From: Escherichia coli
Lineage (GTDB): Bacteria > Pseudomonadota > Gammaproteobacteria > Enterobacterales > Enterobacteriaceae
Length of the DNA: 64,000 bases
Direction: 5' to 3' (one strand)
Assembly: GCF_011045215.1 (NCBI RefSeq)
Contig: NZ_CP049201.1
A program made the translations under genes and the position numbers. The notes beneath the pieces were generated by a model. The model was not told the origin of the DNA, did no database searches, and worked only from the letters and a program-made list of their open reading frames with translations. The first letter of the stretch is position 1. The number at the start of each line of letters is the position of its first letter. Shown here in pieces: positions 3,150 through 4,277 of the stretch.

Positions 3150-4277
3150 ATGAAAGTTAAAGTACTGTCCCTCCTGGTCCCAGCTCTGCTGGTAGCAGGC
3201 GCAGCAAACGCTGCTGAAGTTTACAACAAAGACGGCAACAAATTAGATCTGTACGGTAAAGTAGACGGCCTGCACTATTTCTCTGACGACAAGTCTGTAG
3301 ATGGCGACCAGACCTACATGCGTCTTGGCTTCAAAGGTGAAACTCAGGTTACTGACCAGCTGACCGGTTACGGCCAGTGGGAATATCAGATCCAGGGCAA
3401 CGCTCCGGAAAGCGAAAACAACTCCTGGACCCGTGTGGCATTTGCTGGTCTTAAATTCCAGGACATCGGTTCTATCGACTATGGTCGTAACTACGGCGTA
3501 GTTTACGACGTAACTTCCTGGACCGACGTACTGCCAGAATTCGGTGGCGACACTTACGGTTCTGACAACTTCATGCAGCAGCGTGGTAACGGCTTCGCGA
3601 CCTACCGTAACACTGACTTCTTCGGTCTGGTTGATGGCCTGAACTTTGCTGTTCAGTACCAGGGCCAGAATGGCAGCGTAAGCGGTGAAAATGATCCGGA
3701 TTTCACTGGTCATGGCATCACCAACAATGGTCGTAAAGCTCTGCGTCAGAACGGCGACGGCGTTGGCGGATCTATCACTTATGATTACGAAGGCTTTGGT
3801 ATCGGTGGTGCGATCTCCAGCTCCAAACGTACCTGGGATCAGAACAACACTGGTCTGATCGGTACTGGCGACCGTGCTGAAACCTACACTGGTGGTCTGA
3901 AATACGACGCTAACAACATCTATCTGGCTGCTCAGTACACCCAGACCTACAACGCAACTCGCGTAGGTTCCCTGGGTTGGGCGAACAAAGCACAGAACTT
4001 CGAAGCTGTTGCTCAGTACCAGTTCGACTTCGGTCTGCGTCCGTCCCTGGCTTACCTGCAGTCTAAAGGTAAAAACCTGGGTGTCATCAATGGTCGTAAC
4101 TACGACGACGAAGATATCCTGAAATATGTTGATGTTGGTGCAACCTACTACTTCAACAAAAACATGTCCACCTACGTTGACTACAAAATCAACCTGCTGG
4201 ACGACAACCAGTTCACTCGTGACGCTGGCATCAACACTGATAACATCGTAGCTCTGGGTCTGGTTTACCAGTTCTAA
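3150..4277 (+). CDS. ompC: outer membrane porin OmpC (375 aa, non-K-12 allele)
   Basis: ORF with signal peptide [21 protein letters not shown], porin sequence ending ...ALGLVYQF; loop regions differ from the K-12 sequence as I recall it. Confidence 0.95.

Follow-up and report, generated by a model that had tools for sequence, protein, structure and literature searches.

An intact Escherichia coli ompC gene carrying a catalogued minority allele whose surface loops differ from those of K-12

Introduction

The porin OmpC of E. coli exists in many natural variants. Beck et al. (2016) found > 220 distinct sequences among 2,707 predicted E. coli OmpC proteins; the variation lay mostly in loops L4 (33 types), L5 (30 types), and L7 (13 types), which occurred in many combinations (PMC5056734). 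ompC has been described as undergoing mosaic evolution by local recombination, with hypervariable L1, L2, L4, L5, and L7 and about 15 major groups; L1, L4, and L5 are cited as needed for T4, and L4 for TuIb, SS4, and Hy2 (10.1101/2021.09.21.461324). In the case of phage PP01, the GVIN insertion in L7 is the key determinant of adsorption to O157 OmpC. K-12 OmpC lacks GVIN, which is why PP01 cannot adsorb to K-12, and a second PP01 contact is formed by Ser-Pro in L5 (PMC12892980). Monoclonal antibody 2G12, termed "O157-specific", derives its specificity mainly from the peptide LGVING (PMC8426304). Chimeric OmpC proteins traced recognition by CdiA-EC536 to L4 and L5, and the ompC genes of clinical isolate A35H and of strain CFT073 each confer resistance to CDI-EC536 (PMC5056734). 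Colicin ColE9 threads its way through the lumen of porins, and is translocated less well by OmpC than by OmpF owing to the charge of the OmpC eyelet (PMC8561637).

The structure 2XE1 is OmpC of uropathogenic strain CFT073, also designated "O6" (PMC3203869; PMC5056734). This protein (WP_000865543.1; "OmpC O6") is the closest solved structure to the OmpC described here, with 97.5% identity. Other close relatives are OmpC of A35H, K-12 OmpC (P06996, b2215; PDB 2J1N), and the O157:H7/EC869-type OmpC (c2/a6/e in the nomenclature of Beck et al.), whose loops are matched by the sequence of PDB 9WCB.

Here we describe ompC in a 64,000-nt stretch of E. coli DNA from contig NZ_CP049201.1, referred to below as the window. 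We consider it highly probable that the gene is functional, that its channel and its regulation are K-12-like, and that its surface is made of a naturally circulating loop set, with L1 and L2 of the CFT073/536 type, L4 of type b1, L5 of type a11, and L7 of type e.

Identity and location of the gene

The whole window was collinear with positions 2,315,898-2,249,157 of K-12 MG1655, with identity of ~98-98.6%. ompC was located at 3150..4277 on the + strand, as an ORF with an ATG start encoding 375 aa followed by a stop codon. Gene order around it was rcsD-micF-ompC-apbE-ada-alkB-yojI, the same as in K-12, with rcsD upstream of ompC. The protein scored 756.5 bits with the NCBIfam model NF007841 "porin OmpC" (cut-off 484), and stayed below cut-off with the paralogue models for OmpF (475.5; cut-off 583) and PhoE (450.9; cut-off 599). 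It matched Pfam Porin_1 (PF00267) over its full length (E = 3.7e-140). A Sec signal peptide of 21 aa (3150..3212, + strand) and a C-terminal aromatic end (…VYQF) were present, both identical to those of K-12; the limit of the signal peptide was set by alignment, the mature chains in PDB beginning at residue 22 (AEVYNK). Downstream of the gene we found a hairpin resembling an intrinsic terminator (4296..4315, + strand), followed by a T run.

The intact ORF ruled out a pseudogene, and synteny and NCBIfam scores ruled out a paralogue (ompN, nmpC, or phoE). These findings indicate that ompC at 3150-4277 is an ordinary, intact chromosomal porin gene in its usual locus. The protein is predicted to be a general-diffusion porin that forms a 16-stranded β-barrel trimer, on the basis of the 97.5% identity to 2XE1 over the full mature length.

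A 364-aa ORF on the opposite strand (3243..4337, - strand) was considered and rejected as a gene, as it lies opposite the conserved, strongly codon-biased ompC; no annotation was found at its position in the RefSeq records examined. This ORF is a mechanical by-product of codon usage in the sense gene.

Distribution of differences from K-12 OmpC

The protein was aligned with OmpC of MG1655 (b2215, 367 aa, from NC_000913), and limits of strands and loops were taken from the structure-based boundaries in S1 Fig of Beck et al. 2016 (PMC5056734). Relative to K-12, 345 residues were identical, 22 were substituted, and 8 were inserted, giving 92% protein identity. Insertions were NDPD/H in L4 and GVIN in L7. 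The 72 codons of L1, L2, L4, L5, and L7 contained 28 of the 30 changed residues, and the other 303 codons contained only two, V106I and F109I, both in strand β6 (Fisher exact p = 1.8e-20 for concentration of changes in the loops). The preliminary description had reported that the external loops differed from those of K-12. The alignment bore this out, and all five loop strings quoted in that description were found in the protein.

L1 (3282..3302, + strand) had two substitutions and no insertion; its sequence SDDKSVD (SDNKDVD in K-12) is the same in CFT073, 536, EC869, and others. L2 (3393..3422, + strand; 10 aa, QGNSAENENN in K-12) had three substitutions and no insertion, and is the same in CFT073, 536, and A35H. 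The trimer-latching residue in L2, E66, was kept. L4 (3666..3746, + strand) was the most altered loop, with seven substitutions and four inserted residues; it comprises 27 aa, belongs to Beck type b1, and is identical to that of CFT073 (2XE1) and of UPEC 536. Seven substitutions without insertion were found in L5 (3828..3872, + strand; 15 aa, Beck type a11), which is identical to that of CFT073, A35H, and 6104H. L7 (4074..4112, + strand; 13 aa, Beck type e) had the four inserted residues GVIN and a single substitution, G317N; this loop is shared with EC869, the O157-type allele, EC93, and A35H. L3, L6, L8, the signal peptide, and the last 58 residues were identical to K-12 in protein sequence. 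Apart from the five loops and strand β6, no OmpC region had any substitution or insertion.

The barrel core had been called canonical at the outset. This was correct for the pore, L3, and most strands, which were identical to K-12, and it overlooked the two substitutions in the β6 segment IGSI (3465..3476, + strand; V85I and F88I in mature numbering). Codon 109 (3474-3476; mature residue 88) encodes Ile, where the three closest PDB sequences and 12/12 alleles in Beck S1 Fig have Phe. F88I is a rare barrel substitution that is evidently tolerated, being part of the widespread allele WP_000865544.1.

Pore and permeability

The constriction zone of OmpC is made of K16, R37, R74, R124, D18, D105, and E109 (PMC3203869). 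All of these residues, together with E66, were present in the protein. Constriction loop L3 (3492..3569, + strand), including PEFGG, differed from that of K-12 by four synonymous changes only and was identical in protein sequence. Solute and antibiotic permeability should be unchanged relative to K-12.

The OmpC differences might instead alter pore permeability, as in clinical resistance-linked variants, rather than surface recognition. Variants with changed antibiotic transport are known from the OmpC26/28/33 series (D18E, S271F, R124H), and changes in L3/L4 narrow the extracellular cavity in the OmpC20 series (PMC3203869); two barrel substitutions in β6 are also present here. However, D18E and R124H were looked for in the protein and were absent, D18 and R124 being retained, and the constriction-zone residues and the whole of L3 were those of K-12. 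For S271 (OmpC20 numbering), the comparison was made at the level of strands β13-β14, which were identical to K-12. In addition, the related OmpC-O6 (2XE1) superimposes on K-12 OmpC with very small rmsd and is treated as a wild-type-like parent (PMC3203869). We therefore regard an effect on permeability as very unlikely, and favour a change in surface recognition with an unchanged pore.

Regulatory region and micF

The micF sRNA gene, divergent from ompC, was found at 2723..2816 on the - strand (Rfam RF00033, 116.8 bits, full length). It differed from K-12 micF by one base, 2734, in the terminator stem. On the + strand this base is G vs A in K-12, so that a G-U pair of the micF terminator becomes G-C; G agrees with the Rfam consensus and with strain FDAARGOS_943, so K-12 is the exception.

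The 333-bp micF-ompC intergenic region likewise differed from K-12 by a single base, at 2969. OmpR boxes C1-C3 (2971..3030, + strand) were 100% identical to K-12 by alignment, the limits of the C2 and C3 boxes upstream of ompC being those that we presume. The sequence of C1 was checked against a published oligonucleotide (PMC2586830). Base 2969 is A vs C in K-12 and FDAARGOS_943, and lies 2 nt upstream of the TTTACA that starts box C1; it falls inside the published 36-mer "C1 site" oligonucleotide and outside the TTTACA...TCTA core (PMC2586830).

The ompC core promoter and 5′ untranslated leader, which includes the MicC target region (3031..3149, + strand), were also 100% identical to K-12. 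Promoter and leader would function as in K-12 on the strength of this identity, and regulation of ompC, by EnvZ/OmpR acting at C1-C3 and post-transcriptionally at the leader, is predicted to be unchanged. The earlier statement that OmpR boxes and micF are conserved thus agreed with the alignment, apart from the one base in micF and the one in the intergenic region.

Comparison with described OmpC proteins

All 354 mature residues aligned to 2XE1, with nine differences, and 366 of the 375 precursor residues were identical to those of CFT073 OmpC. The CFT073 precursor also has 375 aa, and its L1, L2, L3, L4 (b1), L5 (a11), and L6 are identical to those of the window allele. The two proteins differ in L7, which is GVVAG (type c) in CFT073 and GVING (type e) in the window. 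They also differ at mature residue 88 (F in CFT073, I in the window), in β10 (V/A/V vs I/G/I), in β14 (V vs L), and in L8 (A and D vs D and N). In nucleotide sequence, their L4-L5 blocks differ at 11 of 225 positions.

OmpC of A35H (PMC5056734 S1 Fig) has the same L1 (SDDKSVD), L2, L4 (b1), L5 (a11), L7 (e), and β10 as the window allele. Its β6 has V85/F88, whereas that of the window allele has I85/I88, and its β14 has V instead of L; L8 is RAAGINTDDI in A35H, and the window allele differs at the A and D. A35H OmpC thus departs from the window allele at 4 positions outside L4/L5/L7 (β6 V/F, β14 V, L8 A and D).

The resemblance to K-12 OmpC lies in the locus, promoter, OmpR boxes, micF, barrel, L3 eyelet, L6, and L8; in contrast to the window allele, K-12 OmpC has no GVIN in L7. 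The O157:H7/EC869-type OmpC has L1 and L7 identical to those of the window allele, including GVIN/LGVING. However, its L4 is short (8 residues fewer) and its L5 is RTDDQNSPLYIGNGD, unlike those of the window allele, which lacks the L5 Ser-Pro through which O157-type OmpC cross-links to PP01 gp38.

Frequency of the allele

The protein was identical to RefSeq WP_000865544.1, as annotated in FDAARGOS_943. At least 1000 public contigs encode this exact protein, labelled "MULTISPECIES: porin OmpC [Enterobacteriaceae]". Loop typing, which rests on S2 Table and S1 Fig of Beck et al., assigned it to L4-b1/L5-a11/L7-e by exact string match to S2 Table; L4-b1 is the type of UPEC 536 and CFT073, L5-a11 that of CFT073, and L7-e that of EC869. 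Among 5,426 complete E. coli genomes, 61 (1.1%) carried ompC at ≥ 99% nucleotide identity, 217 at 95-99%, and 5,002 at 90-95%. The L4-L5 block was found with ≥ 80% coverage in 269 of these genomes, in 78 of them at ≥ 99% identity. The allele is therefore a minority allele, but a well-populated and catalogued one, and it is not novel.

These counts bear on the word "divergent", which had been applied to the allele in the preliminary description and does not hold in the sense of unusual, since K-12 OmpC is itself only one of the > 220 variants. A new or exceptional divergence, either imported from another species or arising in a burst private to this strain, would make the allele a receptor variant worth characterising. 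In favour of such an origin, ompC at ≥ 99% identity and the L4-L5 block are each restricted to the small numbers of complete genomes given above, and the best match of the window to any complete genome is 99.3%. On the other hand, the exact protein belongs to the RefSeq non-redundant set, each loop was already a numbered type in the 2016 catalogue, A35H ompC with the same loop combination has already been cloned and tested, and a crystal structure at 97.5% identity exists. An exceptional origin has next to no probability in our view, and is already refuted by the exact database matches.

Origin of the allele

Nucleotide differences between the window and K-12 clustered at 3401-3500, 3601-3900, and 4001-4100, vs ~1-2% in the flanks. 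There were 26 synonymous codon differences, mostly in codons 98-216. Relative to FDAARGOS_943, which encodes the identical protein, ompC differed at 3 of 1128 nt (all synonymous) and the flanks at 82 of 5254 nt (1.6%; Poisson p = 2.4e-5). Recent transfer may not account for the whole contrast, part of which could reflect strong codon bias and purifying selection acting on the highly expressed ompC.

Flanking sequence (24.6 kb, window 4400-29000) was compared with the 5,426 complete E. coli genomes, and the best match was 99.3%. The closest flanks were those of OkiPb01695, PapM-32-1, and O145:H28 RM9872 (99.1-99.3% over 24.6 kb). Their OmpC proteins have 367, 373, and 375 aa, respectively, with a short c-type L4 and different L5 types. 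These nearest-flank strains are bovine, baboon, and O145:H28 strains, so that ompC and its surroundings in the window point to different relatives.

The allele is a mosaic, with L1, L2, L4, and L5 of the CFT073 type and L7 and the 3′ end of the O157/EC869 type. Because allele and flanks do not match, synonymous changes are clustered, and the loops are mosaic, we favour localised recombination; the allele was most likely brought in by homologous exchange of a short patch at ompC. The alternative, that the loop differences accumulated mutation by mutation in this lineage under positive selection and without recombination, is most improbable. ompC was found to be positively selected in older genome scans (cited in 10.1101/2021.09.21.461324), and non-synonymous changes prevail in L2 and L5, as this explanation would have it. 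However, multi-codon indels and the clustered synonymous changes travel with the loop changes, the identical protein allele occurs in a background whose flanks have diverged by 1.6% while the closest backgrounds carry other alleles, and an L7 of O157/EC869 type stands next to L4 and L5 of CFT073 type.

Under recombination, loop cassettes would be reshuffled among E. coli lineages by short-patch homologous exchange at ompC. Diversifying selection exerted by loop readers (phage tail-fibre adhesins, CdiA toxins, antibodies) probably maintains the allele.

Predicted recognition by phages, toxins, and antibodies

We infer expression of ompC, the recombination history described above, and all of the following susceptibility phenotypes. 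By analogy with published work on these loop types, the allele probably changes recognition by phages, contact-dependent toxins, and antibodies, and altered surface recognition is the phenotype that would be expected. The A35H result, transferred to the window allele by its shared loops, suggests that the allele would not be recognised by CdiA-EC536. L1, L4, and L5 are unlike the K-12 surface that T4-type fibres use, and would present such fibres with a different target.

LGVING is present in the window allele, which is of non-O157 type, and the L7 GVIN element would be available to PP01-like phages and to mAb 2G12. Because the allele has GVIN in L7 but not Ser-Pro in L5, sensitivity to PP01 is not predictable from the sequence. 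As for colicins, the eyelet is unchanged, and we have no ground to expect altered colicin sensitivity from the loop changes. The preliminary description had proposed that the allele changes susceptibility to phages, colicins, and antibodies; the literature on these loop types makes the phage and antibody part of that proposal plausible, and the colicin part is weak, given the unchanged eyelet.

It has already been documented that OmpC loops are polymorphic, that this variation is of mosaic origin, and that it affects phage, CDI, and antibody recognition; this exact protein is in RefSeq. The practical value of the present analysis is in annotation: the strain types as OmpC L4-b1/L5-a11/L7-e, which predicts resistance to CDI-EC536. 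Furthermore, the LGVING/GVIN element of L7, which serves as a marker epitope for O157 and as a determinant for PP01, is not confined to O157. This bears on claims about reagent specificity and on the choice of phages for the strain.

A bolder proposal is that CFT073-type L4/L5, O157-type L7, and the rare β6 substitution F88I together give a receptor profile that is as yet undescribed, one that would escape CdiA-EC536 and K-12-adapted T4-like fibres and would cross-react with mAb 2G12 and PP01-like phages in a non-O157 strain. We consider this unlikely. If it were true, the profile, together with the strain-private yejB-yejE deletion described below, might point to a lineage in which warfare with phages and bacteriocins has left its mark.

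Other differences from K-12 in the window

yejB and yejE encode permeases of the YejABEF oligopeptide/microcin C importer, and YejB bears the RefSeq name "microcin C ABC transporter permease". Here, 996 bp present in K-12 (2,274,801-2,275,796) are deleted at junction 38410/38411 of the window; yejB has lost its 3′ part and yejE its 5′ part, and truncated ORFs remain at 38363..39031 and 37911..38381, both on the - strand. A junction-spanning query detected this junction in none of the 5,426 complete E. coli genomes. One genome covered ≥ 80% of the query, through a two-piece match spanning 679 bp, which represents a different, smaller event. The deletion has probably caused loss of the importer and, with it, resistance to microcin C; it may instead be an assembly artefact.

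The autotransporter gene yejO (~25290-27900) was uninterrupted in the window, whereas K-12 carries IS5K in yejO; the gene is also intact in OkiPb01695, PapM-32-1, and O145. The mqo-eco spacer (10858-11194) contained a tandem array of ~113-bp REP-type repeats that differed from that of K-12 in copy number and length, and one unit of the array matched Rfam naRNA4 (75.3 bits). At 24232-24256, ~150 bp of the K-12 ccmH-narP intergenic region (2,291,176-2,291,326) was absent. The short spacer is also found in OkiPb01695 and PapM-32-1, and the long form in O145 RM9872; this difference is an ordinary indel polymorphism.
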